DNA of 64,000 bases from Deltaproteobacteria bacterium (GCA_027493875.1 JAOSJX010000006.1:45248-109247), one strand, 5' to 3'; shown: positions 3,982-60,043, counted from the first letter of the stretch. The notes: generated by a model not told the origin, from the letters alone. Numbers and translations: made by a program.

Positions 3982-5532
3982 TTAGACGGCGGGCAGCGTC
4001 GCGATCCGCTGGCCTTCCAGCCAACGGCGCGCGGTGAGGATGGACGCCTCGCCTTTCAGAATCAGGCCGATTCCTTTTACAACGAATTTTGCCGTATTGA
4101 CGAGTTTCGCCGCGGCAATCACCGGTGAGGGATGCTTCGCGAGAAAGCGCGACCGCGTGAGCCATCGGATGAGCGGACGCGGCACGCCGCGCTTATTACA
4201 CAGCAGATAAAGAGCCAGGAAGAAATTTTCCTCGGGCGGGCGCGGATACGTGAAGTCGGCGTTGAACTGGTGCAGCACTTTCGCGTTGCGTCCTTCTACG
4301 TCGTCCGGCGTGATGAGCCCCGCTTCCAGGAGCTCCCGCGTGCGGTCCGTGCCAGGCCAGTGGCACAGCGAGTAAATCAGAAGATCGAAGGGCCGCGGAA
4401 AACGCAGCAACACGTTGAGAAGCTGCTCTTTGTCTTCGCGTTCCGCGCCGGGATCGTCGATGAGAATCTGGAACATGCCGTGCACGCCGAAGCGCTTGAG
4501 GTTCTTCGCGACCTCGAGAATGCGGTCGTCCCCGCCGGTGCGGTGATAGAGTTTCCGATTATGTTTCGACGCGCCCTGCACGCCGACGAAGATCTCGTCC
4601 ATCCCCGACTCGGCGAGTTTCCGGATCGTCGTTTCGTCCAGGCAGTTCGGATTCGACAGCACGTCGAACGGCAAACCGACGCGCCGCGGGTAGACGTCCG
4701 AAAATTCCTCCAGCCAATCCGGCGTGACCACGAAAAGCTCGTCGTCGAACCGGATGCGTTTGAGGTTCGGAAAATACGGCCGCGCGCGTTCGATCTCGCT
4801 CACGCAGCTTTCCACCGACCGGACGCGGTAAAACGTGCCGTTGCCTTCGTACACCCGGCGCATCGCGCTGATGCCGCAGAATCCGCAACGATACACGCAT
4901 CCGCGCGTCGCCATGATGCGAAACAGTTTTTCGCCGGCCAGCGGCTCGCCGGGCACGACCGTTTCGCCGCGTACCCAGAATTTGTTGGCCACCGAATGAA
5001 AATCCGGCGACGGAATCGTATCCAGATCCGGCGTCAACGGACGCAGCGGATTTTTCACCAGCTTGTCGCCGACGCGCATCCACACGTTTTGAATGGTTTC
5101 GACGTTGCCGTCGCTGGCGTGCGCCCGGGCGATATCCAGAATCGTTTTCTCCGACTCGCCGAGCGCGATGAAATCCGCCTTCTCCACGCAGTCTTCGGGC
5201 GCCATCGTGACGTGCGCGCCGCCCCACATGACGGGGATGCCGAGTTCCTTTTTGATCCGCTGCGTCAACTGCGTGGCGACGTTGAAGAGGGCGCCGATCC
5301 GCAGCGAAAGCCCGACCAGGCCGATCTCGCGTTCGCGCAAAAGATCGATCAGTGTGCGGATTTGCTCTTCCGTCGGCGGCTTGTAGGCGTGGTGCGTGAA
5401 ATATTGGAAGAAAATCTCGTCCACGTCGAAGCCGTTTTTGCGCAGCGACGACGACAAATAGCGAATGGAGTTGCTCTCCACGACGTATAACGCGACAAGC
5501 CCGATGCGTGGCATCCGATGAAAATAACCCAA
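3982..5532 (-). CDS. B12-binding domain / radical SAM domain protein
   Basis: N-terminal cobalamin-binding-like domain, then the radical SAM cysteine motif RGCVYRCGFCG (CxxxCxxC) and an elongated C-terminal region. Confidence 0.8.
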   Translation of the reverse strand: MGYFHRMPRIGLVALYVVESNSIRYLSSSLRKNGFDVDEIFFQYFTHHAYKPPTEEQIRTLIDLLREREIGLVGLSLRIGALFNVATQLTQRIKKELGIPVMWGGAHVTMAPEDCVEKADFIALGESEKTILDIARAHASDGNVETIQNVWMRVGDKLVKNPLRPLTPDLDTIPSPDFHSVANKFWVRGETVVPGEPLAGEKLFRIMATRGCVYRCGFCGISAMRRVYEGNGTFYRVRSVESCVSEIERARPYFPNLKRIRFDDELFVVTPDWLEEFSDVYPRRVGLPFDVLSNPNCLDETTIRKLAESGMDEIFVGVQGASKHNRKLYHRTGGDDRILEVAKNLKRFGVHGMFQILIDDPGAEREDKEQLLNVLLRFPRPFDLLIYSLCHWPGTDRTRELLEAGLITPDDVEGRNAKVLHQFNADFTYPRPPEENFFLALYLLCNKRGVPRPLIRWLTRSRFLAKHPSPVIAAAKLVNTAKFVVKGIGLILKGEASILTARRWLEGQRIATLPAV

Positions 5533-5647
5533 TCCTTCGCCGGAAAAAAGTTGCGGTTCTTACCTCCTCGCACGCGATATGGGGTGCTGGGGCGGCTTTG
5601 CGACGAAAACGCGGTCAAACGTCCGACGCTCTGAAGTCTTTCGGGCG

Positions 5648-6926
5648 TCAATCCGCGTCGGCTTGTGCCAATTTGACGGATGCTTTCTCCGGGAGCGGGA
5701 TCGCGGCGAGCTTCGGGCCCATTTCGTTCATGAGCGCTTCGAAGTCGGCGCGGTAGGCGTCGGGCAGGATCTTCGCGGGTTCGGAATACATTTTCAGGCC
5801 GAGGGGATTGATGTACTGCCCGTTGCGTTTGACGCGGTAGTCCAGGTGCGGGCCGGTCGAACGGCCGGTCGATCCCACGCGCCCGATCATCTGCCCCTGG
5901 CGCACGCGTTGCCCCGAACGAACCGCAATCCGCGACAGATGCATGTACAGCGTCTCGATACCGCCGCCGTGCCGGATCACGATGAGGGTTGCCCGCGGCG
6001 CCGCGGCGTCCCGCCGAGATCACCTTGCCGTCCGCCACCGCCCACACCGGCGTTCCGGTCGGCGCCCCGAAGTCCACGCCGTGATGCATCGCGCGGCGCT
6101 TCAAGATGGGATGGCGCCGCATGCCGAACCGGCTTGTGATGCGCATGGTGTCGAGCGGCGCGCGCATGAACGTGCGGCGAAGCTGCACGCCCTTCTCGTC
6201 GTAAAAGCCGTCGATGTCCTCGTCGCCCACCGAAAACCAGAAGCCGCGCCGTCGCCCGGTTTTCTCGCCGTCGTACTCCCCGGCGAGCAGCCGGCCGTAG
6301 CCGTGCGGCGTGCCGTCCGGCAACAGTTCGCGTTCGTAGATCAACCGGAACGAATCGTCGACGCGCGGATCGGTGTAAAAATCGATGTCCCACGCGAACA
6401 GCCCGGAAACGAGGCTCGCCAGGCCGTCGCCCTCGCCCGCGTCGAGGATCGCCTCGTACACGCTCGTCGCCACGCGCGCGCCCATGTCGCGGACCTCGGT
6501 CGTGGTCGGAATCTCTTCGCGGCGGGCCGCGAAACCGTCACCCTCGGGACGCACTTCGTAGTGCACGAGCCGGTCCACGTGGAAATCCAGACCGCCGAGC
6601 GCGCCGTCGTCCAGGTACGCCACCACCGTCTGCCCCGGACGCATTCTCCGAAAGGGAAACTCCACGTCGCGCAGCGCGTCCACGACCTCCATCGCGTCCT
6701 CGTCCGCCACGCCGGCCTGCGCCAACGCACCGGGCAATGTCTGACCGGACACAATATGCACTTCGACCGGCTCTCCCACCGGCGGGGGTCTCGACGATCG
6801 GCTCGGGCGCCGCGGCGGCGGGGATTCGTCCGGTATCGCCTTCTCCACAACGCACGACGGCGCCGCGGCGAGGAGAGCCGCGATGGTTAGAGCAAAAAGG
6901 AAGAACCGGCTCGCGTTTCGGCGCAT
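5648..6926 (-). CDS. M23 family (LytM-type) metallopeptidase with signal peptide; apparent frameshift near 5985
   Basis: N-terminal signal MRRNASRFFLFALTIAALLAAAPS. M23 motifs HHGVDFGAPTGTPVWAVADGKVISAG (ORF 5349..6926 frame) continue as LIVIRHGGGIETLYMHLSRI…GSTGRSTGPHLDYRVKRNGQYINP in ORF 5648..5980. The junction is at a c/g run. Confidence 0.8.
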
Positions 6927-8518: not shown

Positions 8519-10595
8519 CTATTCGGTCAGAAATTCAACGAGACCGAGGCGGAACAACGCGTAAATCAGGCCGAGGCAGCGGGCCTCGTCCATGGAACTC
8601 GCCGTCACGATTTCCTGAAGCGTTTTACGGCCGTTGAGTTGGCCGATGACGCGTGTCTCCTCGGGGTCCACGAGATTGCGCCGGGCCCGGTCCCGCATGG
8701 TGGCCGGCATGGTCACCAACGTGTTTCGATACGGCGCCAGTTCGTCCGCGACATGTTGAGGGTTGATCCGGGCACGCAGCGCCGACAGCAGGACGCGCAC
8801 GAGGTCCACGTTGAGCGGGATCGCCTGGCCCTGCCCGATCTTCTGCTCCTCGAATCGGACGTCCTGGCGCCCGGCCGAGGGCGGGGTTGTCAGCGACATG
8901 AGCCGGCTCTCGGCCTGCGCCATGAGCGCCTCCCCACAATTCGTGCGGCGTGACGAGGCCGCGGGCGAGCAGCACCTCACCGAGCGGACGGCCGGCGCTT
9001 TGCGCTTCGGTCAGGGCCGCATCCCGCGTTTCCTCGTCGAGTTGGCCGCGCTCCACGAGAAATTGCCCGAGCGAGTCGCGCGCCACCTTGTCGGTCGTGA
9101 TCTGCACGGGCTGCCCTTCTTTGAGGACGACGCGGTGCGTGGCGTCGGAAGTCTTCACCGTCACCACGCCGTCGGCGCGGATCGAGTTCAGGCGGTACAG
9201 TACGCGCAGCAGATCGCCGCCCTCCTCGTCCTCGCCGTCGCCGGACACCGCGCCGCGCAACACCGCGTCGGGGGTGCCCTCGCCGCGCTGACGCGCTTCG
9301 GCCAGCGCGCGCACCATCACGGGCTCCTCGAGTTGAAAGAACGACACGTCGCGGTCGCGGAACCGCACCAGCCCGAACAGAAAAAACAGATAGAGCACCT
9401 GAAACGTCCGCACGAACGACAGCGGGGCGCGGCTCATCACGTCGCCGAGCGTCCGTTCGCCATCCACGAGATCCAAAATCTCCCACTCGCCGCGCGTGAG
9501 CTGAAGCCCGGCGCGCCGCGCCTGGCGCACGTCGCCTTTGCGAATCGGGCGATGGCGGTTGGCGTAAATGCGCCCCTCGAGAATCGCGAGGGTGCAATAG
9601 TTCTTTACGCCCGCCAGGAGGATCTGAAGAATGCTTTCCTCGATGCGTCCCGAGTCGCCGAGCGGGACGTCGCCGGGCGAGAACCGGTAGTTGCCCTCGC
9701 GGTGCTCGAACGCACTCAGCAGCTTTCGCTGCGCCTGATAGTGAAGCGTGGAAAACAATTCGTAGCTGTCGAGCCAACCGTGCTCGACGAGTACTTCGCC
9801 CAGCCGCCGACCCGAGTCCACCGCTTCCGCCTGCGCTTCGTTCAGTTGCTGCGGCGTGATGCGTTCCTGCTCGACGAGAATCCGCCCCAGGGAATGGTTC
9901 GCGATGAAGTTGGTGTCGATCTCCTGCGGGATGCCGTTTTGAAACATGATTCGACGCTCTTCCTCGCGGCTCCACATCGACAGCACGCCCGTGGCGCGCC
10001 GTTGATAAAGCGATAGCATCAATTCCGGAAAAAGAATGTTTTCGAGCGTTCCCTCGACAGGCACCTCGGGAACCGGCGCGCTCAGTTCCTCTTCGTCGGT
10101 CATATCCCAGTCCGCCGGGCTGACGACCGTCGTCGCGGCGTGGGACGGCTCGTCGAACTCCTCATCGATCCGCGGTTCGTCCGGTTCGGGAGGCGGCGGC
10201 GTTTCGGTGATCGGCGGGGCTTTCCGGCCCGCGGAAACGGACAGCACAAACTCCGGTAATTTTTTGAAATCGAGCGGCAGGGCGAGGTATTCGTCGGCGA
10301 GAAAACGGCGCTTGACGTCCGCGGCGAAGGTCTCGCGGCGTTGGATCGCGCTGACCACGACCACCTTACACGATTGCGTTCCCGGCGCCTGCTTGATCTT
10401 CTTGCAGAGCTCGAGGCCGTTGCGGTCCGGCAACAGCGCGGCCAGAAGAATCACCTGCGGCAGGCGCATTTTTGCCGTCGAATCCTCGAGCGCAATCGTC
10501 AGATCGTGCCCGCGCTTGAACGTCTGCACCTCGAACCCCTCGGAAGCGAGCCGCCCGCGCACCATGTCCAGAAATCCCGCGTCGTGATCCGCCAC
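8519..10595 (-). CDS. multidomain signalling protein: degenerate receiver (REC) – PATAN/DUF4388 – MshEN/T2SSE_N-like (c-di-GMP-binding type) motifs x2 – second PATAN-like domain; one apparent frameshift
   Basis: REC-like VILLAALLPDRNGLELCKKIK with Ala at the phospho-acceptor position. DUF4388-like ILFPELMLSLYQRRATGVLSM. MshEN-like motifs RRLGEVLVEHGWLDSYELFSTLHYQ and RPLGEVLLARGLVTPHELW. The C-terminal DUF4388-type segment continues in ORF 8519..8980 after a g/c4 run at ~8932-8935. Confidence 0.65.
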
Positions 10596-10628
10596 GAAAA
10601 CGATTGTGCCCCCGGCCTTGTTCCTTGC

Positions 10629-12747
10629 TCATGGTTTCCTTCCAAACAGGGACCGAATGGGGTCCTTCGACTCTTGTTCGCGCTGCTTTTCGAGCGCCGA
10701 CGTCAGATAGTGCACTTGGCGGCGCGCCTCGTCGTTTTTCGGATCCTTCTCCATAATCGACTGATAGACCTTGATCGCCGCTTCGGTCTTTCCTTGGTGC
10801 CGGTACACCTCGCCGAGCCATTCGCGATACGTCACGTTGTCCTGATCCAAACGAATGGCCTTATTCAATTTGGCGACGGCGTCGTCCAACGAAAAACGCG
10901 GGTTCGCGATCAACCGGTAAATGCCGTAGCCGGCGCGGGCATGGTATTCGGCCACCGCGGGGTCGAGCGTGGCGGCGCGGTCGAAGGCGTCCGCGGCGGT
11001 CCCGAGTCGCTCCTTCTCCGTGGCGATCAATCCTTTTGGAAGACCGCCTCCGCGTCCATTTTTCGCTTGCGGGCCTGCGCGTCCGGATCGTTCGAATCGG
11101 GCGCCGGCGGGCCCCCGGCCTGACGTGTGTACCGGCGCCGCGTAAGCGGGTCGGAGAGCGTGTCCCACGCTTCGTCAATTTTGCGCACGATCGCCTGAGC
11201 GCGCCGGCGAACGCCCGGCGGCGCGCCGGCCGGCAGCGCGTCGGGCGCGAATTCCGCCTTCGCTTTCTGGTAGGCCTTTTCAATTTCCTTTTTGGTCGCA
11301 TCGGGCGCGACGCCGAGCAGTTCGTAGTAGGTCGTCTCGCCCAGCGACGCGGCAACGCGCTCGAGGTTTTCAAAGGCGCCCGTTTCGGGCGGCGCGTCGG
11401 ACGACGGCGGCGCCTCGGGCTTGACGGCCGGCACGCTCGCCCGTTCCTCGGCCGCCTCGGCCAGACGGCACAGACCGGCCGCGACCAAGCCGTAGATCAC
11501 GCGAACCGTATCCATCAGTCCCAGCGCCGACCGCGCGACGACGTCGCCGAACGCGTGGCGGCCGTCAAGCGACACCGCCAGTGTCTTTTCCTCGGGGGTC
11601 ATCTCCGGCGCCGGCAGCAACGGATTTTTACTCGGCACGGGATGAAGATTCTTATGCCGGACAAACGACGCGTCGATCAATTCGGCCCTGTAGTAACGGC
11701 GGTATCCTTCCATGATCGCGCGGTACAGACCGGCTTCAAAAGTTGGCGTATTCTCCGGATAACGCACGTCCGGGCTCAACCGGTACGTCCCTTCCTTCCA
11801 CGCGAACAGGCTCGCTATTTTCGTCGCCGTCTGCGCGCACAAATAGCGCGTCAGCTCGCCCGCCGGAACGATGCCGCGGCTGATGAGCAAGGTGCCGACC
11901 TTCTGGCCCGTTTCCGCGCTTTCCTCGATCACGGCGCGGTACTGTTCCTCCGTGATCCGCCCGGAGGTCATGAGCAGGCGGCCGAGCGCCTCCTCGCGAA
12001 TATTCGATTGCACGAAGACGGGCTGCCCCTCGATGAAATAGACCTGCTTACTCCCCGGCGCGCCGTCCGCGCGCAACGCCCCGGAAAACCGTTGCTCGGC
12101 CAACGCCAGAAACAGCCCTGCGAGACTGGCCGGGCGGAAAATACCTTCCTCCGCGGGCCGCACCGTGCGCATCGCGGGGCCGGGCCGGTCAGGATCGTCG
12201 TCCGCAACCGCGGCCGGCGGCGGAGACTCCGCCGGCGGTTCGGGTTTCGGGGGTTCTTCCTTGGACCGGTCCGGCCAAATCGATTCGACGCGTTTTTTTC
12301 GGGCGCGGGCGCGATCTTGGCCTCGGGGGCCGCCGCTTCCTCCACTGCCTCCGCGACGGCGGGATCGCCCGCGCCGATGAGATCGATCAGAATCCGCGAT
12401 AAATCCGTGGCGTCAAACGGCTTTTGGAGGAACGCGTCGGCTTTGTGCTTTGTCGTGGCGGCGGTCCGGATCGCGCGGCTTTGCTGGAGCTTGGACGTCA
12501 CGACCACTTTGGCCCAATCCGGCGCTTGTTCCTTGACCAGTTTGGCCACCGCGAGGCCGCCGATGCCCGGCAGCAGAATCTCGACCATGACCAGATCGTG
12601 GTGCTTTTCGCGAAACGCCGCGAGCGCCTCGTCCGCGGAGGCGGCGGTGTCCACGCTGTAACCCATCTGCCGCAACAGCACGCCGAGATCCCGGCGTTCG
12701 GCCTCGTCGACCTCGACCAACAAAATCGATTTGGGCGAGGAGGCCAC
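10629..12747 (-). CDS. multidomain signalling protein: atypical REC – PATAN/DUF4388 – MshEN-like – J-like domain lacking HPD – C-terminal TPR; two apparent homopolymer frameshifts
   Basis: The REC (MASSPKSILLVEVDEAERRDL…VMVEILLPGIGG, ORF 11968..12747) joins across a 7-nt t-run at 12292-12298 to the linker and DUF4388/MshEN/J-like part (TYYELLGVAPDATKKEIEKAYQKAKAEFAPD, ORF 11027..12172). This joins across an a/t4 run near 11033-11036 to a TPR tail (ORF 10629..11168). The GTG start at 12747 has a GGGAGGGGG SD and abuts the stop of the upstream gene at 12748. Confidence 0.6.
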
Positions 12748-15019
12748 CTAGCCCCCTCCCAGCTTCCTCAGAGCCAGCCGAGCTTCCTCGTTGTCGGGAT
12801 TGCAGTGGAGCGCCTGTTCCAGGTGTTTGCGCGCGGCCTCTTTTTTCGCCCAACTGCGACGCAATCATCCCCAGGAAGTAGTGCCCGGCGTCCATCGTGG
12901 GATTCATCGCCACGCCTTTGGCGATGGCCCTCCGCGCGCGTTCGACGCTCTCAGCGTCGCCGGGGTCCCGCCGGTAGACCGCCCAGCCGAGGTAACCGTG
13001 GTACTCGGCCTCGTTCGGCGCGGCGTCGAGCGCCCGGTCGAAACATTCGACCGCCCGGTTGAAATCCAGATCGCGCAGGGCGTCCTCGCCTTCCTGAAAC
13101 GCGAGCTCCGCCTTGAGAATTTCGGCGACGTTTTCCGTCGCCGCCGCGGACTCGGACAGGTCCACCGCGGCCTCGCCGTCGTCCGCGAAAAGATCGAGAT
13201 CCTCATCGCGGGTGTCGCCGGCCGGCGCGAACTCGGCTTCCGCCTCCCACAACGTGTCGAGGCCGTCGAGCTCGTCGGCCGACGACGCGGCGGGCTTACT
13301 TTCCACCGGCGCCGCCGTCTCCGCGGGCGCGTCCTCGGTGCTCAAAGCGAGGGGCGGGAGGTCCGCGTCCAGCGGCGGAAGATCGGGCTCCACCGCCGGG
13401 CCGCCCGGCGCCGCGGCGGCGGGCGGCGACGCCGCGCCCTTGGCCAGGCCCGCGTCGTAGGCGGCGCGCTCGGTGGGATTGACCAGCGCCGTGTACGCTT
13501 CCGTCAAACGCATAAAAATTTCGTCGGCTTTCTTGCGGGTGGTCTCGTCCGCCGCCGAATACAATTTGTGATCGTGAAAATGTTTGGACAGCGCGAAATA
13601 GGACGCCTTGACGCGGTCCACCGGCGCGCTCGGCGCAATGGACAGGATTTCGTAAAAGTTCAACCGGTCGATGCGCGCATGCGCGCGGTTCACCTCGGCC
13701 CGGAAAGAGATGCGCGGGTCACCGGTCTTCGCGATTTTGTCCGTCCGCATGCCGCCCAACCCGGAGAGCGGCGTCGCGGCTTGCGCGTGGGCCGCCGCGC
13801 CGACACCCGGCGCGTGATCCTCGCCGCGGAAGCGGAGGGTTTCGAGCACGAGCAGAAGAAAGAGCGTCTGAAACGTTTCCGTGAGCGACAGGTTCGACCG
13901 CGCCACGATCTGGCCGACCGTCCGCCGTCCGTTGATGAGCGTGACGAACTTCATCGTCTGCGGCCCGAAACCGATTTTGTCGTCGCGGACGAAAGGTTCG
14001 TTCACGCGGACGACGCGCCGGTTCTTGTATTCGTTGAAAAACCCTTCCAGCCGCGACAGCGTGTAAAAACGTTTGATGCCTTCGTAAAGGATTTGAATGG
14101 GATCCACGTTGATCGTGAAATCCTGATTGATCTCGAAGCGCCCGGGACGGAAGCGGTAGCGCCCCCGGTCCCACGAAAAAACGGTGAGCACCTTTTCCAT
14201 CACGTGATCGTAGAGACCCTTGTACAAACCGTGCGGCGTAATGGCTTCCATTTCCAGGAGCACCTGGCCGTGCTGTTTGCCGGTCTCCAGCATCCGTTCG
14301 AGGGAGGCGTTGTACTGCGCGGTGGTAATGTCCCGCCGCTGCACGAGAAAACGCCCCAGGCTTTCCGTCGCCTGGTTGCTCGTCACCAGCACCGGCAGGC
14401 CCGACTGAAGATAAACGACCTTGCTGACGCGTTCCCGCTCCAGGCGCAGCGCGCCGGTCCGTGCGTACTTGTGCAGATAGAATAGGAGCTTCGGAAAGGC
14501 GATATCGCCGAGGTCGCCTTCGAGCCCGACCTTTTTCTGCGCGTCGATGGCCGGGTCCGGTTCGGGCTCGGCTTCGACCGCCACGGCGGCCGGCGCCGCT
14601 TCGCCGAAATCCTCCGCAACGGCGGTTTCCTCCTCCGGATATCGGCCGTCGCCGAGGAGTTCGTTAATGAGCCGTTCGAGCTCGCCCACGTTCACCGGCT
14701 TTTCCGTGTAGGCGTCCACACCCACCTGACGCCGGGCCTCGTATTGTTCGCGGAATTGCCCGTACACGGTGGACATCAAGATGATCTTGACGTCCCGGCC
14801 CTCGCGCATGGACTTCACTTCCTGCGTCACCTTGAGGCCGGTCATGCCCGGCAGGAGCGCGTCGAGGATCATGAGGTCGGGCGTGACGTCCGGAAATTGG
14901 GTCACCACGTCGCGGCCGTTCTTGAGCCAGGTCACCTGAAAGCCTTTCGCCGAGAGAAGGTCGTTGAGCACCTCGAACTCGGCGTAATTGCTTTCTCCGA
15001 CCAGAACGCGTTTGGACAT
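12748..15019 (-). CDS. multidomain signalling protein: REC – PATAN/DUF4388 – MshEN-like – J-like domain (HPD replaced) – acidic linker – TPR; one apparent frameshift
   Basis: ATG at 15019 with AGGA upstream. REC MSKRVLVGESNYAEFEVL…LMILDALLPGMTGL. DUF4388 FPKLLFYLHKYARTGALRLE. J-like NFYEILSIAPSAPVDRVKASYFALSKHFHDHK. TPR EYHGYLGWAVYRR…AGHYFLGMIASQLGEK. It then continues in the neighbouring frame (EAARKHLEQALHCNPDNEEARLALRKLGGG*) after the t6 run at 12841-12846. It is listed by the ORF track as part of one 1231-aa ORF 12413..16108. Confidence 0.65.
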
Positions 15020-15029
15020 GGCGAAAATC

Positions 15030-15985
15030 CTACTCGATTTCTCCGCACGCTTCCACGAGCGCGGCGGCCAGAAGCGGAAACAGAATCTCGTGATGGCCCG
15101 TGATGTGAATGCCGCGTCCCCCGGCCGCGTCGGCCGGTGGACGACATTGGTCAGGGGCCGGTAGTGCCGCAGAAAATCCAGGTTGACCGTCGTGATCGGC
15201 GAGAGCTTCCGGCCCGCGTTGCGCGACGCGGAAACCGCCTTCAAAAACACTTCGGGCAAAAGAACGGCGGAGCCAAGGTTGATGTAGACCCCGCCATCCA
15301 GATCCGACACGAGCGTGACGAACCGCGCGAAGTCGCGGCCGGCCAGCGCTCCGAGTGCGGCGAAATCCAGTTCCGCGGCGAGGTGCGTGACGTCGGTGCC
15401 GATCGCCACGTGCGCGGTGGCCGGCGTTTCCGTCTCTTCACAAAAAGCCAAAAGACTGTGTTCGCGGTATGGCGCGTCCAGCGACGCGATGCCGCGGCCC
15501 ACCGCCTCGGCCAGGCCCAAACCGGCCTCCGCGCCCTCTTTGACGAAACGCGCCAGATCGCGGCCCGTTTCGTGCGTGACGCCGAAGGAACCGTCCGCGA
15601 GCGCGGCTTCCACGTCCTCGCTCGTTTTGCCGGCGACCGCGCTTTCGTAATCGTGCACGAGCACGGCGCCGTTCACCGCCACCGCCGTGAGAATTTTCCG
15701 GCGGATGAGGTCGATAATCAGCGGCGAGAGGCCGACTTTGACCGGGTGCGCGCCCATCCCGAGAATCACCGGCCGCCCGCGTTTGCGCGCCTCGCACACC
15801 GCCGCGACGACGGCGCGCAGATCGCGCGCGGCCAGATGGTCCGGCAGCGCGTTGAGAAACTCGGCGAAGGTCGCGCCCTCGCGGTGCGGCTGGCCGAGTT
15901 GTTCGAGTTCCACCAGGCTCGGCCGCGTGTCGAGGCTCTGCCGCGTGAGGCGGGAGAAATCGAAGGGCGGGACGCGGTTGCTCAT
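15030..15985 (-). CDS. deoxyhypusine-synthase-like (DHS-like NAD-binding fold) protein, family assignment tentative; apparent frameshift at c5 run 15118-15122
   Basis: Start [10 protein letters not shown] at 15985 overlaps the upstream stop as ATGA. The C-terminal [30 protein letters not shown] (other frame, stop 15030-15032) resembles the GGGIIKHHI…VFPLL C-terminal region of deoxyhypusine synthases. Confidence 0.4.
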
Positions 15986-16584
15986 GCGCCGTCCTTCCCG
16001 CCGAACATCGTCTGTTCGACCAGACCGCACAGCAAATGCCCGATCGTGATGTGCACCTGCTGAATGATCGGGGTGTCCGGGCTTCGGACGATCAGAAGAT
16101 GATCGCACACGTCGCCCATGCGTCCGCCGTCGCGGCCGGCGAGACCAATGGTGACGGCGCGACGCGACCGGGCCGCGGCGAGGCCGGCGAGGACGTTGGC
16201 GCTTGTTCCCGACGTCGAAATCCCGACCACGGCGTCCCCTTCGCGCACGAGCGCCTCGACCTGCCGCTCGAAAATCTTATCGAACCCGAAATCGTTGCCG
16301 ATCGCGGTCAGCGCGGAGGTATCGGTCGTCAGCGCCACCGCCGCGAGCGCGGGCCGGTTGATGAGATAGCGGCCGGAGAGTTCCGCGGCGAGATGCTGGG
16401 CGTCGGCGGCGCTGCCGCCGTTGCCGAAGAAAACGACTTTGCCGCCGCCGCGCAGCCGCCGCAGCGAGCCGTTCCGCCACGCCGGCCACGCTATCCGCGG
16501 ACTCGCGAAAAAAGCTTCTAGCGCCTCGGCGCTGGCGCGAGCGTATCGCGCGATCTCGCGCGACGCGATGTCGGCCCCGCTCAC
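15982..16584 (-). CDS. SIS-domain protein, phosphoheptose isomerase GmhA / DiaA-like
   Basis: [26 protein letters not shown], the [11 protein letters not shown] motif and a typical ~200 aa length. Confidence 0.8.
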
Positions 16585-16681: not shown

Positions 16682-19618
16682 CCGATAAAGCTCAACACCC
16701 GCAGCCGCCGCAACCGCCGTGGAATTGTTCCCGCCGCTGACGCTGCCGTCCTCGTCGTCGTCGTCCGGTGTGATCGGATCGGCCGCGCTGTCGTCGTCAT
16801 CCGCGTCGTCGTCGGGCGGAAAAAATGTCGTCGTCGCCGGCCGAATCGTCGTCCGACGTGTCGTCGTCGCCCGTATCGTCGTCCGCCGGAATCGTGGTGG
16901 TCGTCGTCGACGTCGTCGAGACCGTTGTGGTGGACGAACTGGTCGTCGGCGGAACGGTTGTGGAGGACGTTGTCGTTGTGGTCGAGGAACTGCTTGTCGT
17001 CGTCGAGCTTGATGACGTCGTGGTCGTCGAAGACGACGTCGTCGTGGAGGACGAGGACGTGGTCGTCGTACTCGATGAGGTCGTCGTGGTCGATGAGCTT
17101 GAAGTCGTGGTCGTGGAGGAGCTCGTCGTGGTGGTCGAGCTGGAAGATGTGGTCGTGGTCGAACTGGACGTTGTCGTTGTGGTCGAGGAACTGCTTGTCG
17201 TCGTCGAGCTTGATGACGTCGTGGTCGTCGAAGACGACGTCGTCGTGGAGGACGAGGACGTGGTCGTCGTACTCGATGAGGTCGTCGTGGTCGATGAGCT
17301 TGAAGTCGTGGTCGTGGAGGAGCTCGTCGTGGTGGTCGAGCTGGAAGATGTGGTCGTGGTCGAACTGGACGTTGTCGTCGTAGAGGAACTGCTGGTCGTC
17401 GTTGTACTCGACGACGTGGTGGTCGTCGACGAACTCGTTGTCGTCGTCGACGAACTTGTGGTCGTCGTGGAACTGGAGGTTGTTGTCGTTGACGAGGACG
17501 TGGTCGTGGTCGACGAACTCGTTGTTGTTGTCGATGACGACGTCGTGGTGGTCGACGAACTCGTTGTCGTCGTCGACGAACTTGTGGTCGTTGTGGAACT
17601 GGAAGTCGTGGTCGTCGACGAGGACGTGGTTGTGGTCGACGAGCTTGTGGTGGTTGTGGAGGAACTCGTGGTCGTGGTTGAAGACGACGTCGTGGTGGTG
17701 GAAGAGGAGCTCGTCGTCGTTGAGGAACTGCTTGTCGTTGTCGTTGAGCTGGACGTCGTCGTCGTGGAGGACGACGTGGTGGTCGTCGACGAGCTTGTGG
17801 TGGTTGTGGAACTGGATGATGTGGTCGTGGTTGACGACGAACTCGTGGTCGTCGAAGAACTGCTTGTCGTCGTTGAAGAACTCGAGGTGGTTGTGCTGCT
17901 CGACGTCGTCGTGGTGGACGAGGTCGTGGTCGTGGAAGAACTCGATGTGGTCGTTGTGGTGGAGGTCGTGGTCGTCGTCGTGACGACCGGATCACCCGGA
18001 ATCTCGCCCCACCACGTCGCCCAGCGGTCCCACCCGCCGCCGGGCGTCGCCGCGTATTCCTGAATCGTCCAGAACGTCGTGTCGTCTTCCGGGTCCACGA
18101 CGGTGTTGCTGTAATCGCCCCAGCGATTCCGTGTGCCGCTGTAGATTTTGTAATAAGGCGCTTCCCCGGCCTTGAGCACCGTATCGTCGCGCAAGACGCC
18201 CGCGGCATCCGTATCGTAGCGGAACGAATAGTTGCCGCCGGCGTACTGCGTTTCGGAAAACCGCGAGTAACCGATGACCGCGTTGTTGTATTGGTTCACC
18301 GCCATGCTGGGATACGCGTAAAACAAGTTTGCCGTGCCGTCGTCGATCCGGCCCTCTTGAACGCGCGAGATGGTCGACGGATTGATTTCCCACCATTGAA
18401 TGGACGACCGCGTCGGCGAGAAGGACGGCAGGAAGATCGTGTGCGTCGCCCAAAGGCTCCCGTTCCGGTAGACCAGCGTCTGCATCCGGTGATCGTTGGT
18501 CGTGATGCCTTGCACGGAATCGAGCTGCGGCGCGAAATCGTTTCCGGCGCTGCCGGCCCAGGTCCCAAGGGCGCTGCCGATCGCTCCCATGTACGAAATC
18601 GACTCCGAACCGATGGCGCCGGTGATTTGATAGAGACGGACTTCCCCGACAGCGAGCGCAGCACGTAGATCCGGTCGAGGGACGCGTCGAAGGTCTGCGC
18701 GGGGACCATGGTGAACTGCGGGTAGTCGATCCGCGTGTAGTCGACGGCGCCGCCGGCGTAGAGATCGGCCTTGTCGAAAACGAACAGGTACGTGGTCGAA
18801 TACGCATTCCCGCTGATGGTGAACATGTTCACCGAGACGACGACCCAGTCCTTGTTGTAGCCGAAGCTCGGATAATCGACCCACAGCGTGTTCCCCGAAT
18901 CCCCGTCGAGGAAGTAGAGATACCAGGTTCCCGTCGGGTCATCCGTCGCCGACGCGCCGATGAGCACGCCCGAGGTCGACGACGCGGCGTTCGCGCACGC
19001 GGTGAAAATCCACCGGCCCGACAGCTGGTCATAGAGCACCTTCGGATCGAACGCGTCGGCGCCGAGGGAACTCCAGAACACATCCAACGTCACCGTCCCG
19101 AGATTCGTTCCGGTCTTGCTCTGGATGCGCACCTGCGAATTGAGCACGGTCATCAGGTGATCGGGGCCGGCGGCGCCGTGCGTGTCCGGGGGAATCGTCG
19201 TGTTGTTGTCGAGCAGCGCCTGGAAGCTCGACGTGGGCGAAGGGCCGGGTACCAAGGGCGGAGGTCCGGCTTTTTCCGGCCCGCCGCGCTCCGGAAGCGG
19301 CGCGGCATCGTCATTCAAATAGTAATCGACCCACGGCGCCTCGCCTTCGTAGATCGGCGGGCCGACCGCCGCTTCCTGCATGACGAGATCGGAAAAATCG
19401 ACGACCGCGCTCGCGCGGATCTCGAGACGGGTTCCGGGGACCGGGCCGTCTTCCTCGATTTCGTCAAGGTTGACGCCGCCGCCGTCGGGATCATGCTCGA
19501 CGGTGATGTCGTCCGCGGACTCTTCCGCCGGTCCGTCATCCAACGAAGGATCACAGGCCGCGCCGGCCAAAACGACCAGCGCGCACAGAACGAAGAAAAT
19601 AGGATGACGAAGTTTCAC
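16682..19618 (-). CDS. giant secreted lipoprotein with a mucin-like Thr/Ser repeat region (~330 aa of TTTTSSS repeats) and an Asp-rich C-terminal tail ending …GGCGGCGC*; at least three apparent frameshifts
   Basis: Lipoprotein signal MKLRHPIFFVLCALVVLAGAAC at 19618. The globular domain runs across ORF 18296..19618 then ORF 16797..18884, joined at a g4 run near 18640. The T/S repeats are at ~16940-17990. The tail …IPADDDTGDDDTSDDDSAGDDDIF then continues, after an a6 run near 16810-16815, as PPDDDADDDDSAADPITPDDDDEDGSVSGG. A further 1-nt shift gives HGGCGGCGC with a TGA at 16682-16684. Confidence 0.6.
16940..17990 (-). repeat. tandem coding repeats (Thr/Ser-rich, ACG/TCG codon arrays) including exact ~200-bp tandem duplications (17001-17200 ≈ 17201-17400)
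   Basis: Long arrays of gtcgtcgtc/gaggacgac-type units, with whole blocks repeated verbatim. All three minus-strand frames stay open across it, producing artefactual Pro/Arg-rich ORFs; the plus-strand frames produce Val/Glu/Asp-rich ORFs. Confidence 0.8.
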
Positions 19619-27046: not shown

Positions 27047-27682
27047 TTGGACCAACGGCTCGTCATCGGCACTTACGATCTCGACGAGGATCTGATCGCG
27101 CGCGTGCGGACGACGCGCGAACCGGCGCAGCGCGTCGCGGCGGTGGCGTCGCGCATGGTCGTGCTCGGGCGCGGAAGCAAGCCGGAGATGGAACTGCGCG
27201 TCGACAACTGCCTTGCCGACGGCGTTCCGGTTCTCCGCCGCGGCGGCGGATGCGCGGTCTTCCTCGACGAGGGCAATATCGTCGTGTCCGTCGTTCTCCC
27301 GGTCACAGGCATCGCGGGAAACGACCGCTACTTTTGCGACATCACGAAATGGCTGACGGCGGGACTATCGGAGATCGGCGTCCCCGGCGTCCGCCCGGCG
27401 GGCGTCTCCGACCTCGCCCTCGGCGACCGCAAGGTCGGCGGCGCGTGCATCCACCGCTCGAAGGACGTTTTGTATTACTCGACGACGCTGCTTATCTCGC
27501 CCGACGTGGACGCGATGGAACGCTACCTCGCGCAGCCGCCCAAGGAGCCCGACTACCGCCGCGGACGCGCGCATCGCGAATTCGTCGGCCGACTATCTCT
27601 TCCGCGTTCGATGGAAAATACCGAGGGACTTGCCGAGGCGTTACGCGCGGCGCTCAAATTTCCGATCGCATTCGGGAGCTAA
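27047..27682 (+). CDS. biotin/lipoate A/B protein ligase family protein (LplA/LipB-like catalytic domain)
   Basis: BPL/LPL catalytic-domain-like sequence VLGRGSKPEMELRVDNCLADGVPVLRRGGGCAVFLDEGNIVVSVVL. Convergent with the giant gene, with a 4-nt end overlap. Confidence 0.6.
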   Translation: MDQRLVIGTYDLDEDLIARVRTTREPAQRVAAVASRMVVLGRGSKPEMELRVDNCLADGVPVLRRGGGCAVFLDEGNIVVSVVLPVTGIAGNDRYFCDITKWLTAGLSEIGVPGVRPAGVSDLALGDRKVGGACIHRSKDVLYYSTTLLISPDVDAMERYLAQPPKEPDYRRGRAHREFVGRLSLPRSMENTEGLAEALRAALKFPIAFGS

Positions 27683-30600
27683 CACCCGCAACAACCCGCG
27701 TCGCCGTCATCGTCGTCGTCATCGCCGTCCTCTTCCCACGGGTCGCGGTGGCGGTCCGGCTCTTCGTCGTCGTCAGGTTCCGCGGCGGAGGCGGCGACCC
27801 ACTCGTCTTCCTCGTTCTGGCCGAATTCGGGAAGATCCCAATCGTCGTCCCATTTATCAAAGGTATCGTCGTCCCCGCCGGCGGTGTCGTCGTCATCGTC
27901 ATCGCCGAGGATCTGGTCGCACGTATCCTGAAGGTCGTTGCATTCCGTTCCGGGGTCGCAAGGGTCGCCGCCCGAAACGCAGGCCGCCTGACCCTCGACG
28001 CAAAACTCCGGTCCGTTGCAAAACACGCCGTCGTCCGCGCACGGGTTGCCCGATTGCAGGCAGCTTTGCGTTCCCTCGTCGCAACTCTCGACGCCGTTGC
28101 AGAACACCCCGTCGTCCGCGCACGGCACGTCCAACGGCACGCATTCGTTCTGCGTCTCGTCGCAGCTTTCCTCACCGTTGCAGAACAAGCCGTCGTCCGG
28201 ACACGGATCGCCCGACGAAACGCACATCTGCGCGTCCTCGTCGCAAGACTCGTCCCCATTGCAAAACACGCCGTCGTCGCCGCACGGATCGCCGGTGGAC
28301 AAACACGCGTCCCCGCCTTCGTCGCAGAACTCGTCGCCGTTGCAGAACACGCCGTCGTCCTCGCACGGATCGCCGGACGAAACGCACTCGCGCCCGCCCT
28401 CGTCGCACGATTCGACGCCGTTGCAAAACGCTCCGTCGTCGAAGCAGGGATCGCCGGTGGAAACGCACCCGTCGATATTGTCGTCGCAAATTTCGTCGCC
28501 GTTGCAGAACAGCCCGTCGTCGCTGCACGGATTCCCGGTGTGATCGCAAACGTCCTGCGCTTCGTTGCACGATTCGCCGCCGTTGCAGAACAGTCCGTCG
28601 TCGCCGCACGGCGGGCCGACGTGAAGGCACGCGTCCAGATTGTCGTCGCACGTCTCGCCGCCGTTGCAGAACAATCCGTCGTCCACGCACGGATTGCCCG
28701 ACGATTCGCAGGCGCTCTGCGCCTCGTTGCACGATTCGGTGCCGTTGCAAAACGCGCCGTCGTCGCCGCACGGATCGCCCGAATGCACGCACTGGTCGAT
28801 CTGGTCGTTGCAGATTTCGTTGCCGTTGCAAAACACGCCGTCGTCCAGGCAGGGGTTTCCGGCGTGCGTGCAAACGTTGCCCGCTTCGTCGCAGGTTTCC
28901 ACGCCGTTGCAGAACGCGCCGTCGTCGGGGCACGGATTGCCCGCGGAGGAGCATTGATCCAGCGTATCGTCGCAAAGCTCCGGCCCGTTGCAGAACACGC
29001 CGTCGTCGGCGCACGGATCTCCCGTCGTCACGCATTGGTCCGTGGTTTCGTTGCACGATTCCGCGCCGTTGCAGAAAAGTCCGTCGTCCGGGCACGGATC
29101 GCCCGCGTGCATGGAGCACGCCCCCGCCTGGCAGGCGTCGTCGCCGTTGCAGAAAACGCCGTCATCGCACGAGGCGCCGTTGTTGTCGGACCACGCCTGA
29201 TCGTCGATCCCCGGGTCGCAGAACAGGCAGCCGTTCACCGGGTTGGGATCGCCGTTGGCGTAACACACGCCGCCGATGAAACATCCGCCGGGGCACGCGG
29301 TGCGGATGTGCACGCCGGAAGGCTGCTCGGGCAGGCCGCCCACGTACCACGGCGACCCGGTCGCGTACGGCGTGGTGGCCGGCGAATACAGAAGCCGCGC
29401 CCGCCATCGCCACGTTCCCGGCCCGGGCTGCTGCGCCGTCGCCGTCATGGTGCCGGTGGTGCCGGCCGCGCCGCTGTCCGACCACGCCGCGAGCACGCCG
29501 TGATCCCACTCGTCGAACGCCTCGTCGAACGGCGCGACTTCCCACTCGATCCCGACCTTGCCGCGCCCGAACGGCGTTTTCTTGGGCGCCTTGATGCGGA
29601 ACGCGTCCGGCGACTCGGACGACGTGTACGGGCTCACGCGGCGGTCCACGTCGAGGCGGATCGGCACCGCGCGCCGCGTCAGGCCGCCTTCGTTGCCGTA
29701 GTAGATAAGCACGCGGCCCTCGTCCGTCTGGTCGTTGTTGAAATGCGGCGCGCCGACGATGACGTCGTCGAAGCCGTCGCTGTTCACGTCCGCCGCCGCG
29801 ACGCTCGCGCCGAGGTTCATATCCTGCTGCCCGCCCGAAACGGTCCACGCCGCGGCCGCGCTCGGCGCGGTCGCCGTGCCGAGATAGAGAAACGCCTGGC
29901 CTTCGTAGGTCAGCGTATTCGTGCGCAGATTGGCGCCGACGACCATATCGGCGTACCCGTCGCCGTTCACGTCGCCCGCCGTTCCGACACTGACGCCGTA
30001 GTTGCACAGATTCTGATTGCCTTCGCCCGTCCACGCCGCCGCGCTCTGCGGGCCGGACACGGTGCCGTAGTACAGCCGCGCGACGCCTTCCTTGAATTGG
30101 TCGCCGTTATACCGCGGCGCGCCGACGATGATGTCCGCGAAGCCGTCGCCGTTCACGTCACCCGCCGTCGCCACGGACGTACCGAAACGCGCGTCGGCGT
30201 TGTCGCTCTCTTTGCTCCACGCGGGCGCCGCGAGCGGGCCGGCCGACGTGCCGAGATAGACATGCGCGATGCCTTCATTGGTTTGCCCGTTCGTATAGTC
30301 CGGTGCGCCGACGATGATGTCGCTGAACCCGTCGCCGTTGACGTCGCCCGCGCCGCCGACCGACCAGCCGTACGCCGCGCCGACGGAATTGCCCTGGCCG
30401 GTCCACACCGGCGCGGCGGTGAGCCCCGTCGCCATCCCGAGATAAACAAACGCGGCGCCCTCGCCGTCTTCCCCCGCGTCATAGCCGTAGGCCCCGACGA
30501 TCACGTCGGTGTGGCCGTCGCCGTTGATGTCCCCGGCGCCCGCGACGCTGTACCCGAACCACGCGTTGTCCTGGTTCGACTCCGCCGTCCACGCCGCCGT

Positions 30601-33065
30601 CGTCTTCAGGCCCGTCGACGAACCGCGGTAGAGAAACGCGCGGCCCTCGTTGTTTTGGCCGGAATCGTAGAAGTTGGCGCCGAGGATGACGTCGTCGTAG
30701 CCGTCCGCATCCACGTCGCCCGCGCCGGCCACGCTGACGCCGAAGGCCGCGTTCGGCTGATTCGCCTCCGCGCTCCACACCGGCGACGCGATCGGCCCGT
30801 TGGGGCCGCCGTGAAACGCGAACGCGCGGCCCTCGTTGACTTCATCGGCATCGAAACCGCGCGCGCCCACGATGATGTCGGCGTAGCCGTCCCCCGTTGA
30901 CGTCGCCAGCGTTCGCCACGACGAGTCCGAATTCGGAGCCGCTCTGATTGCTTTCGATCACCGTCCCCGCCGCGGCCGCCAAGCCGCGGCCCGCGCCGTG
31001 GTACACGAAAGCGCGGCCCTCGTCGGCGAAGGAGCCGTCGTAGTCCGGAGCGCCCACCGCGATGTCGGCGAAGCCGTCGCCGTTCACGTCACCCGCGGCC
31101 ATCACGCTCATCCCGAAGTGCGCGTTGTTCTGGCCGCCGGTGCCGGACCACACGGGCGTCGTGGACGGGCCGGGTTTTCCGCCGAGATAAAGACGCGCCG
31201 ACCCCTCCGCGGACGTTCCGCCGAACGGCGCGCCGACCAGAAAGTCCGCGTAACCGTCGCCGTTCACGTCACCGGCCGGCGCGACGCTCGTGCCGAAGGC
31301 CACGCCCGCGAGATCGCTCTCGACGTTCCACCACGCCGTGGCGGACACGCCGAACGCCGATCCGAAAAACACCGCCGCGCGGCCTTCGCCCGCCTGCCCA
31401 TTCGAATAGCCGGGCGCGCCGGCGATCAGATCCGCGTAGCCGTCGCCGTTCGTATCCCCGGCCCCCGCGATGCCCGCGCCGAAAAATTCGCCCGTGAGCG
31501 TGCCGTCCTTGATCCACGAGGACGACCCGGAAAGTCCGGAGCTCGAACCGTGGTAAACGTACGCGCGTCCCGAATCCTGCACCGACAAATCAAAGCCGGG
31601 CGCGCCGACGGCCACGTCGCCGTAGCCGTCGCCGTTCACGTCACCCGCGGCGTCGAGCGCGTAGCCGAACATGGCGCCGGTCTGCGTGCCCTGGACGGCC
31701 CACGACGGCGAGGCCGCCGGCCCCGCGGAGCTTCCGTAGAACGCGTGCGCGAGGCCGCGGTCGGCCGACGCCCCATCGTAAAGCTCCGCGCCGACGAGCA
31801 CGTCCGCGTACCCGTCGCCGTTCACGTCTCCGGCCGACGCCACGGCCTGCCCATACGCCGAGTCCGGCTGGCCGCTCGCGTAGAACCAGAGGGGCGAGGC
31901 GCCGAGGCCGCCGGCCGACCCCGCGAAGACGTACGCGGCGCCTTCCGCCGTTTGCGTATCGGAGGCGCCCGGCGCGCCGACGATCAGATCGCCGAAATCG
32001 TCGCCGTTGACGTCGCCCGCCGCGGACACCGCCGCGGCGAACGCCATGTCCTGTTGGTCGCCCCGGGCCTCCCAGTCGGCGGTCACCGACAGCCCGGCGG
32101 CGCTTCCGTGAAAAACGAAAACCGCGCCCTCGCCGCCGAGACCGTTGTCGAAACCGGGCGCGCCGACGGCGAGATCGGCGAAGCCGTCGCCGTTCACGTC
32201 GCCCGCGGTCGACACCGAGGCGCCGAGACCCGCCGAGGCCGACGGCCCCGACGCCTGCCACGACGCCGGCGATGAAATCACCGGGTCGATGGTGACCGGA
32301 TAAATCGCGCCGTCATCCTGCACGACGATTCGCAACGAACCGTCCCATTCGAGACGCGCCGGCAGCGGCCGGCCGCCCGCGTCCCACGCGAAAGCGCCGC
32401 CGACGCGTAGCACCGCGCGCGCGGCATCGAAGAATTCCACGGCGCCGCCGCCGGCATCCTCCACGCCGTCGAGATCTCCCGCCGCCAGCACCTCGACCGT
32501 CAGCGGACCGATTCCGCCGGGCGCGGCCGGAACGACGTAGCCGAACTCGATCCCCTCGGGCCCGTTGTCGAACCATTCCGTGACGCCGCCGCGGGCGATT
32601 TCGACAACGCGCGGACAATCCTCGGCCATCCGAACCATGGCCGAGCAGCCGCCGAACGCGGGCGCCCCGGAGGGCAGGCCGGCGCGCGATCCGTCCCGTC
32701 CCACCGACACCGGCCGCAACATCATGCGCCAATCGCCGCGGCCCTCGCGGTCTTCAAGCTCGAGCGTCCCGTCCACCAACGCGCCGCGCAGGCTCCTGCG
32801 CCCGGTTGACGATGGAAAAACCTCCATCCCCGTCCGGACGGATGCGGTACTCCTCGGCCCGGATATAATCCAGGGCTTGTTCGGCCCACGACGCCACCGT
32901 CGGCCCGTCCGCGGCGTCGAATCCCGCGGCGGATTCCTCCGCCGCGGCCGAATCGGTGTCGGTAGGCCCGCCGTCGTCCGCGTTTTCGCACGCGACGAAC
33001 GGATAAACGGCCGCCGACAACAAAACGGCGATCGCCACAAGGCTGATATTTCGGTAAAAACGCAT
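27679..33065 (-). CDS. giant (~1800 aa) secreted lipoprotein: >14 FG-GAP (integrin-alpha beta-propeller) repeats, ~20 Myxococcus cysteine-rich repeats, acidic tail ending …DDDDDDGDAGCCGC*; at least two apparent frameshifts
   Basis: N-terminus with lipobox LLSAAVYPFVAC (ORF 32754..33065). FG-GAP units AGDVNGDGxADxxVGAP recur through ORF 30842..33040 and 27679..30870, joined at a c5 run ~30892-30896 (…AGDVNGDGYADIIVGARGFD). ~20 repeats of CxDDGxFCNGxExC(D/N). Tail DDDDDDTAGGDDDTFDKWDDDWD…EEDGDDDDDDGDAGCCGC*. Confidence 0.7.
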
Positions 33066-45543: not shown

Positions 45544-45642
45544 TTTCCGCGGAACGCGTAAAAACGTCGGATTCGATGGTTTTTGCCGCGCATTGTGATA
45601 AAGTGCGCCGTTTTTTTGGACCCTGTTCCTGAGGGAGTCTTC

Positions 45643-57557: not shown

Positions 57558-57616
57558 GCTCGCTACCGCTCCATAATACGGGGCGAAAAAAGTCCGTCCT
57601 GGCTTTTTCGCCACCG

Positions 57617-57646: not shown

Positions 57647-57715
57647 CCATCCGCCTTCGCTCGGGAGGCATCGGCGGATGCCGCGTCATCCATGACGCGC
57701 GGGGCGTCTCAAAAG

Positions 57716-60035: not shown

Positions 60036-60043
60036 TCGCGACG

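Follow-up and report, generated by a model that had tools for sequence, protein, structure and literature searches.

Three specialised PATAN-domain paralogs share an operon with a putative nucleotide-heptose gene pair in a Lernaellota-like genome

A 64,000-nucleotide stretch (GCA_027493875.1, JAOSJX010000006.1:45248-109247; hereafter the window) from a metagenome-assembled genome that is Lernaellota-like but was deposited under the name Deltaproteobacteria bacterium carries on its minus strand at 8519-16584 five co-directional, closely spaced genes which form one operon: a SIS-domain gene, a gene of the GSU2086 family and three paralogs, here called A, B and C, that join a receiver (REC) domain to the DUF4388/PATAN domain. 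On balance, their sequences lead us to favour the view that this operon couples a heptose-pathway gene pair to three specialised adaptors of the type of Bd2402 from Bdellovibrio bacteriovorus. The PATAN family is known; the three-copy arrangement with heptose genes is, as far as we found, undescribed. An earlier annotation made from the nucleotides alone (hereafter the sequence-only reading) had regarded the module as undescribed, which holds for the triplet operon, since our literature searches returned no description of it or of its link to GSU2086 and GmhA, but not for the PATAN insertion, published in 2006, nor for the REC-MshEN_N combination, published for Bd2402. PATAN proteins outside cyanobacteria are numerous, with more than a dozen in Myxococcus alone, and almost unstudied; Bd2402 itself has a reported ligand and no known function. 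Statements on the proteins of A, B, C and the GSU2086-like gene refer to frameshift-corrected sequences, as set out below.

Organization and conservation of the operon

The SIS and GSU2086-like genes overlap in an ATGA (15985-15982), as do genes B and C (10632-10629), and the TAG stop of gene A (12750-12748) is directly followed by the GTG start of gene B at 12747, with GGGAGGGGG preceding the GTG. The tight packing pointed out in the sequence-only reading, with the stop/start pair at 12748/12747 and its Shine-Dalgarno sequence, is borne out by these junctions, as is the ATGA coupling of the SIS gene; the second gene, which had been called deoxyhypusine synthase-like (DHS-like), proved to be a member of the GSU2086 family. 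The SIS gene is preceded, 45 nt before its start, by a promoter-like site (16658-16629). An Rfam scan of the whole window matched no family, c-di-GMP (cyclic di-GMP) riboswitches included.

The order A-B-C is intact in all eight loci compared (the window and seven others, one of them from Candidatus Lernaella stagnicola, phylum Lernaellota), with 39-56% identity and usually with overlaps of 1-4 nt. An intact GSU2086-like gene stands directly upstream of the triplet in seven of the eight. The five-gene module is kept together although its flanks are rearranged; a LytB-UbiA fusion gene and lgt, for instance, are found directly after gene C in locus L001 (17080-19795) and 47 kb away here (55816-58591, minus strand). 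This synteny agrees with the dedicated module of the sequence-only reading, the genes not being dispersed in related genomes.

Domain architecture of A, B and C

All three proteins contain a REC domain (PF00072; 49.6, 62.1 and 36.9 bits for A, B and C, cut-off 30.2) and DUF4388/PATAN (PF14332; A 62.3, B 63.8, C1 60.2 and C2 32.9 bits, cut-off 25), gene C having two PATAN modules, C1 and C2 (Table 1). From the AlphaFold2 (AF2) model of C module 1 (pLDDT, the predicted local distance difference test, 82.8), a three-helix, winged-helix-like unit is assigned downstream of each PATAN. A and B also possess a J-like domain (Pfam DnaJ, PF00226; 37 and 44 bits, cut-off 27.8) and C-terminal tetratricopeptide repeats (TPR), those of gene A matching Pfam below the gathering scores.

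The three genes are paralogous, with pairwise identities of 25-27% (E 1e-24 to 1e-42). Each shares more identity with the orthologs at its own position elsewhere (32-46%) than with the two genes beside it (25-27%), so the triplication is old. The shared architecture described in the sequence-only reading was right as to REC, PATAN and paralogy, and as to the J-like and TPR parts that two of the three genes add; it erred in taking the MshEN segment for a separate domain and in missing the second PATAN of gene C.

The PATAN insertion and its c-di-GMP half-site

The PATAN matches place about 150 residues on about 117 model positions, and a 53-residue MshEN_N-type unit, consisting of two 24-residue motifs and a 5-residue spacer, sits within the match and not downstream of it. 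The MshEN segment is the published α-helical insertion of PATAN and no separate domain; as relayed in bioRxiv 2021.06.11.447907, Makarova et al. (2006) described this insertion and likened it to the N-termini of GspE and PilB. The insertions are in register with residues 9-61 of VcMshE (PDB code 5HTL), and a phmmer comparison with 5HTL laid query residues 57-111 onto chain residues 9-63 (E 0.003). Foldseek fitted the AF2 model of the C1 insertion to MshE and PilF-GSPII structures with bound c-di-GMP at 0.7-1.7 Å over 51-56 residues with probability ~1; 8PFA, 5HTL and 8PDK are the model's top matches and the only ones of high probability. On 5HTL and 8PFA the fit is 0.7-1.3 Å, for a predicted structure and for C1 only.

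We surveyed the motifs in 20 modules from five genomes, all of which aligned without gaps. In motif II, the B, C1 and C2 copies of the window all conform to the relaxed pattern given by Wang et al. 2016; gene B, for example, has the relaxed match KVGTLLISRGIVPAGELTRYLCAQ, and C1, with RLGEVLVEHGWLDSYELFSTLHYQ, fits the strict pattern too. None of the 15 modules of types B, C1 and C2 has lost the ligand-contacting Gln24 of motif II, and the first residue of this motif is R, K or P in 13 of them. The curated model NF053729 (cut-off 38 bits) is passed by C1 (50.9 bits) and C2 (43.4), B falls just below it (36.5) and A lies lower (24.9). Gene A differs: its motif II is degenerate and reads QHG...E...H, a Q[HQ]G...H/Q variant found in 15 of 16 A-type proteins, and the insertion as a whole, in the window and in orthologs, follows the signature SLGRF[LM]VQ..IT..QYN.SLE.ML.TG.Q[HQ]G.VLLEM..ITPH.L. 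This departure from the c-di-GMP consensus, conserved as it is, suggests a different binding function for A; on a reading to which we give little weight, its insertion may have been retuned to another ligand, such as a nucleotide-sugar product, which would then close a feedback loop.

As judged by these alignments, then, the c-di-GMP motif is present as a half-site only, motif II, in B, C1 and C2 and not in A. A conserved motif did emerge on proper alignment, and of the 24-residue MshEN motifs claimed in the sequence-only reading the register and motif II of B, C1 and C2 stand, whereas motif I and gene A fall away. A c-di-GMP input to the operon is plausible because of the register with VcMshE, the superposition of the C1 fold and the full-length homology to Bd2402 described below. 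The responsiveness to c-di-GMP that had been proposed is plausible for B and C; the insertion of A is degenerate in both half-motifs, and conserved in that state.

Several findings speak against c-di-GMP binding. T2SSE_N (PF05157, including N1/MshEN_C), the family to which the segments had been likened, matched no module at a reporting limit of E = 10, although HMMER's filters drop most matches above ~0.1 even at that limit; PF05157 goes unmatched because only the N subdomain is present. In motif I, whose key residues are R or K at position 1, G at 10, a hydrophobic residue at 11 and a Q-type residue at 24, none of the 20 modules conforms to even the relaxed pattern: position 1 is S, A, T, H or N in 20/20 and never Arg, and the ligand-contacting Gln at position 24 is absent from most. 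C1 has changes of the I19R and L29Q type, resembling those that have been blamed for the loss of binding in XpsE (PMC5013675).

The insertions could accordingly be structural only, with c-di-GMP playing no part: the proteins would be scaffolds that need no ligand, or adaptors that bind their partners through the MshEN_N-like hairpins, as has already been speculated for the cyanobacterial PATAN insertion. Such a role would suit the degeneracy of motif I in every module and of both motifs in A, the unmatched T2SSE_N, and the observation that most of the conserved motif positions belong to the hydrophobic core of the hairpins; it would also suit a window that holds no gene for c-di-GMP turnover. 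Against it stand the retention of Gln24 in 15/15 modules of types B, C1 and C2 and of R, K or P as first residue of motif II in 13/15, the passing of the NF053729 cut-off by C1 and C2, and the reported c-di-GMP binding of the homolog Bd2402, whose motif is weaker. We regard a solely structural role as rather unlikely.

Receiver and J-like domains

Alignment to CheY (whose numbering is used here) distinguishes the three receivers. A-type receivers keep Asp57, Ser87 and Lys109 in 16/16 proteins; B-type receivers have Glu in place of the acceptor Asp57 in 5/5 orthologs; and C-type receivers carry Ala, Ser or Gly at position 57 and Leu, His or Met at position 109 (5/5), with Asp57 to Ala and Lys109 to Leu in gene C of the window and S/G and H/M in its orthologs. 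The combination of an acceptor Asp57, a Ser or Thr at 87 and Lys109 is found in A alone, B and C both lacking it. The acidic Mg2+ pocket (CheY D12 and D13) is degenerate, being E or D followed by S or A in A, E followed by N, P or V in B, and variable in C. Receiver signatures are, as far as these alignments tell, set by gene position across genomes. The loss of the acceptor Asp from two of the three receivers (Glu in B, Ala in C) and the degenerate pocket had been recognized in the sequence-only reading, and the CheY alignment agrees. The likeness drawn there was to the FrzS/AglZ-type pseudo-receivers of Myxococcus, receiver folds without the phosphorylation residues that act as interaction modules. 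Those proteins have coiled coils where A and B have PATAN, J-like and TPR regions, and the likeness is one of receiver fold only.

The operon is in this respect a natural dissection of the PATAN family, in which three co-inherited copies differ in the input site they have kept: a phospho-acceptor in A, a fixed Glu in B, and a dead receiver with two c-di-GMP half-sites in C.

J domains stimulate the ATPase of Hsp70 through the His and Asp of an HPD tripeptide, both of which are required. HPD occurs in 0/16 A-type proteins, which read HDH (as gene A of the window does), HP[YF]D or RP[YF]D/E at this site. Among the four B-type proteins with a located J region, the window has APD and the others APE, HPE and HPD (L005_B). 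It is very improbable, in our judgement, that A and B are J-domain co-chaperones that hand clients to DnaK/Hsp70 under c-di-GMP control, even though Pfam DnaJ scores above its gathering score in both and L005_B has an intact HPD, as the tripeptide is intact in no A-type protein and in none of the other three B-type proteins. Because HPD is absent in 16/16 and intact in only 1/4, an Hsp70 co-chaperone function or chaperone recruitment by A and B, as the sequence-only reading envisaged, is unlikely.

Relation to Bd2402 and other systems

Supplementary Table 4 of Wang et al. 2016 (Nat Commun 7:12481, PMC5013675) lists Bd2402 of Bdellovibrio bacteriovorus as 'REC - MshEN_N - UNK', and the paper cites it as a tight c-di-GMP binder. 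The published Bd2402 fragment gave no word matches at the protein level; a genome scan located the gene at L007:5386-7314. Aligning the profiles of 16 A-type proteins and nine Bd2402 orthologs with hhalign gave 580 collinear columns (probability 99.2%, E 9e-20), and BLASTP of gene B against Bd2402 gave 718 columns (E 2e-10). Receiver, PATAN with its insertion, winged helix, J-like region and TPR are collinear in Bd2402 and in A and B, and Bd2402 repeats their motif pattern, having no Arg in motif I and RIG...LSPHAF..L..Q as motif II. On NF053729 Bd2402 scores 33.9 bits, under B, C1 and C2. On the strength of this homology and the reported binding, A and B can be assigned to a protein family already known as a c-di-GMP receptor family. 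The differences are that Bd2402 is only ~20% identical to A and B, is a single gene with neither triplet nor double-PATAN partner, has a canonical receiver pocket (E-D, D, S, K), and lies beside a HAMP-PP2C phosphatase gene and not beside sugar genes. Two genes precede Bd2402 in that genome (L007, 2925-5285), one for a dCache-HAMP-PP2C (SpoIIE-type) phosphatase and one for a protein of 163 aa without a Pfam match, a different, partner-switching-like context.

Other systems share parts of the architecture. MshE, PilB and PilF (5HTL, 8PDK) have the 53-residue two-hairpin unit with motif II kept; here MshEN_N alone is present, nested in PATAN, without T2SSE_N1 or an ATPase and with the Arg and Gln of motif I lost. 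NfrB, a c-di-GMP-activated glycosyltransferase with an MshEN domain, is a precedent for MshEN control of polysaccharide synthesis, and the NCBIfam NfrB models match the PATAN insertion segments weakly. Sensor and enzyme are one polypeptide in NfrB; in our operon the candidate enzymes and the putative sensors have genes of their own.

The cyanobacterial PatA-type regulators (PatA, PixG, PixE and LsiR) resemble A, B and C in combining PF14332, with its two-hairpin insertion, with a receiver and a protein-binding output. They differ in domain order (PATAN-REC and not REC-PATAN), in lacking J-like and TPR parts, in having canonical receivers with chemotaxis-like kinase input, and in that their partners, PilB1 and PilC, are known. 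The triplet might act as PixG and PixE do, its PATAN domains binding the N-terminus of a PilB/GspE-type ATPase and a platform protein to steer a type IV pilus or type II secretion, with the sugar genes unrelated. The binding of PilB1 and PilC by the PATAN of PatA-type regulators (bioRxiv 2021.06.11.447907), the resemblance of the insertion to the ATPase N-terminus and the co-occurrence of Myxococcus PATAN proteins with the pilus regulator SgmX (PMC11580455) are consistent with this. We nonetheless consider it unlikely, in view of the reversed domain order, the added J-like and TPR parts, and the lack of pilus or secretion genes, both in the window and around the module in the other seven loci. 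It concerns the output only, and would be compatible with the coupling of Bd2402-type adaptors to a heptose pair in other respects.

The upstream GmhA-like and GSU2086-family genes

The SIS protein is GmhA-like, of the sedoheptulose-7-phosphate isomerase type; with TIGR00441 gmhA it scores 186.9 bits, a near miss to the cut-off of 209.45. The protein of the second gene matches NF052581 over 301/301 model positions (371.8 bits, cut-off 250). Pfam DS (PF01916) gives 16.2 bits (E 0.007) and does not reach its cut-off of 27, and deoxyhypusine synthase matches are weak in four of five GSU2086-like orthologs. A profile of 47 members is closer to the C-terminal Rossmann domain of ArgZ/AgrE (E 4e-6 to 1e-5) than to DHS (E 0.18). 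The DHS fold was judged from profiles only, the single-sequence AF2 model (pLDDT 37) being useless. 'DHS-like' would thus be, at best, a distant superfamily statement, and the designation in the sequence-only reading gives way to GSU2086.

At E ≤ 1e-3, the GSU2086 family numbers 2,472 clusters when grouped by 50% identity. Its members are found fused to CTP_transf_like, to PfkB with CTP_transf_like (HldE-like), to SIS_2 (GmhA-like) and to HAD (GmhB-like) domains. In Geobacter sulfurreducens, GSU2086 lies between gmhA and hldE, and its mutant shares their electrode-growth defect (PMC5585712). That gmhA-GSU2086-hldE operon has the same pair as ours, with the GSU2086-family member coming after the GmhA-type SIS gene, there with hldE and in an envelope sugar context; here hldE is absent and the pair is translationally coupled to three regulators. 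Given the fusions and this Geobacter neighbourhood, we assign the pair to nucleotide-heptose metabolism, and the GSU2086 family is probably an undescribed enzyme of that metabolism. For a family of ~2,500 clusters, the fusions to all types of ADP-heptose enzyme are the first functional lead found; we found no literature linking DHS-like proteins to heptose genes. The family has many invariant His, Asp and Glu residues, and its fusions with kinase and adenylyltransferase domains of the HldE type, with GmhA-type SIS, with HAD phosphatase or with ARMT1 domains include P0082, P0089, P0097, P0120, P0121, P0126, P0131, P0172 and P0191.

Proposed function of the operon

We propose that A, B and C are cytoplasmic adaptors, each a receiver followed by PATAN with an MshEN_N-type insertion. 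A, with a phosphorylatable receiver (Asp, Ser, Lys) and a diverged insertion, would take a phosphorylation input; B would combine a fixed Asp-to-Glu receiver with a borderline c-di-GMP half-site; and C, with a dead receiver and the two best-preserved PATAN sites, would take a c-di-GMP input. Contacts between their receiver, PATAN and TPR surfaces might join the three in a single complex, and a ligand in the insertion would alter which partners the PATAN and TPR surfaces hold. Our guess at the output, from the co-transcription with the heptose pair, is envelope or exopolysaccharide synthesis. In its strongest form, in which A, B and C make up a hetero-oligomeric sensor of phosphorylation (through A) and c-di-GMP (through C and B) that directly controls the co-translated enzyme of the GSU2086 family, and with it how much nucleotide-heptose is available to an envelope glycan, the model is quite improbable.

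To the motif I losses, the unmatched T2SSE_N and the C1 substitutions, further points are to be added that weigh against the coupling of adaptors and heptose pair. The window of 64 kb holds no histidine kinase, GGDEF/EAL, pilus or secretion genes, and input and output are therefore without local support. In locus L042 (7685-7963) the GSU2086-like gene has shrunk to its last 42 codons, which lie between SIS and A, and the SIS gene is present in only four of the eight loci, so the pair may be a passenger of the triplet. That A, B and C form a complex is pure inference.

If the regulators act on the GSU2086 enzyme, a new route from c-di-GMP to envelope sugars would exist in a candidate phylum without a cultured member; if they do not, the locus would be a lineage-specific expansion of a known receptor family.

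Frameshifts in the assembled sequence

The sequence as given contains six frameshifts, one each in the GSU2086-like gene and A and two each in B and C, all in homopolymer runs (Table 1); the sequence-only reading took the genes as intact and made no mention of them. The deposited proteins mirror them: P0001 is a 1190-aa fusion of the GSU2086-like protein and A, and P0049 is a truncated C. One single-base indel mends each frameshift and brings back conserved protein sequence, and the most parsimonious repair of gene C yields a perfect motif II in C2. With six frameshifts within 7.5 kb, and with P0001 and P0049 reflecting them, the genes could be decaying pseudogenes with real lesions. We give this hardly any credence: every frameshift lies in a run of 4-7 bases and is restored by one base, no in-frame stops or lesions other than these six occur in the target genes, and their orthologs are all intact. 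An unrelated M23 peptidase gene (5349-6926, minus strand) is split by a frameshift of similar kind. On these grounds the six most probably arose in assembly; the assembly behind the window seems to be prone to indels, and its errors were carried into P0001 and P0049.

Table 1 Coordinates of genes, domains and frameshifts in the operon (positions in the window).
Feature	Position	Strand	Description
SIS-domain gene, GmhA-like	15982-16584	-	200 aa, GTG start; Pfam SIS_2 78.3 bits
GSU2086-family gene	15030-15985	-	~318 aa; NF052581 371.8 bits
GSU2086-like gene frameshift	15118-15122		G5
Gene A	12748-15019	-	756 aa once corrected; REC-PATAN-winged helix-J-like-TPR
Gene A REC	14654-15010	-
Gene A PATAN	14114-14509	-	α-helical insertion 14204-14362
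Gene A winged helix	13823-13966	-
Gene A J-like domain	13448-13663	-
Gene A TPR	12760-13126	-
Gene A frameshift	12841-12846		A6
Gene B	10629-12747	-	706 aa once corrected; REC-PATAN-winged helix-J-like-TPR
Gene B REC	12373-12729	-
Gene B PATAN	11759-12136	-	α-helical insertion 11831-11989
Gene B winged helix	11456-11599	-
Gene B J-like domain	11120-11335	-
Gene B TPR	10686-11047	-
Gene B frameshift 1	12293-12299		A7
Gene B frameshift 2	11032-11037		A4/G2
Gene C	8519-10632	-	703 aa once corrected; REC then two PATAN modules
Gene C dead receiver	10227-10607	-
Gene C PATAN 1	9663-10043	-	insertion 1 at 9735-9893
Gene C winged helix 1	9354-9500	-
Gene C PATAN 2	8843-9218	-	insertion 2 at 8915-9074
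Gene C winged helix 2	8522-8668	-
Gene C frameshift 1	10609-10613		G5
Gene C frameshift 2	8932-8935		G4

Genomic surroundings

A GAF-GGDEF gene, of the diguanylate cyclase type and so in favour of a c-di-GMP input, lies within ~6 kb of the triplet in four of the eight loci and is not found in the window. A UDG-NfeD-Band7-GAF/GGDEF block stands beside the module in L003 (3796-4989), L006 (19997-21196), L043 (1302-2507) and L044 (1695-2885) and is absent from the window. In the six-frame translation of the window a GGDEF-type motif gave no match, and the HD-GYP motif gave two loose HD...GYP matches that are unlike HD-GYP domains. A 246-aa gene upstream in L003, L005, L043 and L044, which encodes a signal peptide and probably an outer-membrane protein, was considered as a member of the module and set aside, having no homolog in the window. 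An anti-phage defence system was likewise discarded, PADLOC giving only a trivial match to the receiver domain.

The other genes of the window, which offer no clue to the function of the operon, include those for MoxR, DUF58/VWA, radical SAM, M23 peptidase, outer-membrane, GDSL hydrolase, FG-GAP, subtilase and superoxide dismutase (SOD) proteins. At 16797-18884 (minus strand) lies the gene for a 695-aa secreted protein with ~400 residues of (Ser3-4 Thr4)n repeats, which give rise to a strong local GC skew of +0.18 and to spurious long open reading frames in other frames. The FG-GAP (27682-30957, minus strand) and subtilase (45562-47679, plus strand) genes encode large secreted proteins that end in an Asp-rich segment followed by a Gly/Cys tail, DDDDDDGDAGCCGC and DDDDDDGGGCGC, which may be a C-terminal sorting or anchoring tag. 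A gene for a RiPP (ribosomally synthesized and post-translationally modified peptide) precursor-modifying enzyme of the MbnB/TglH/ChrH family (290 bits) at 60036-60956 (plus strand) hints at a peptide natural-product locus.

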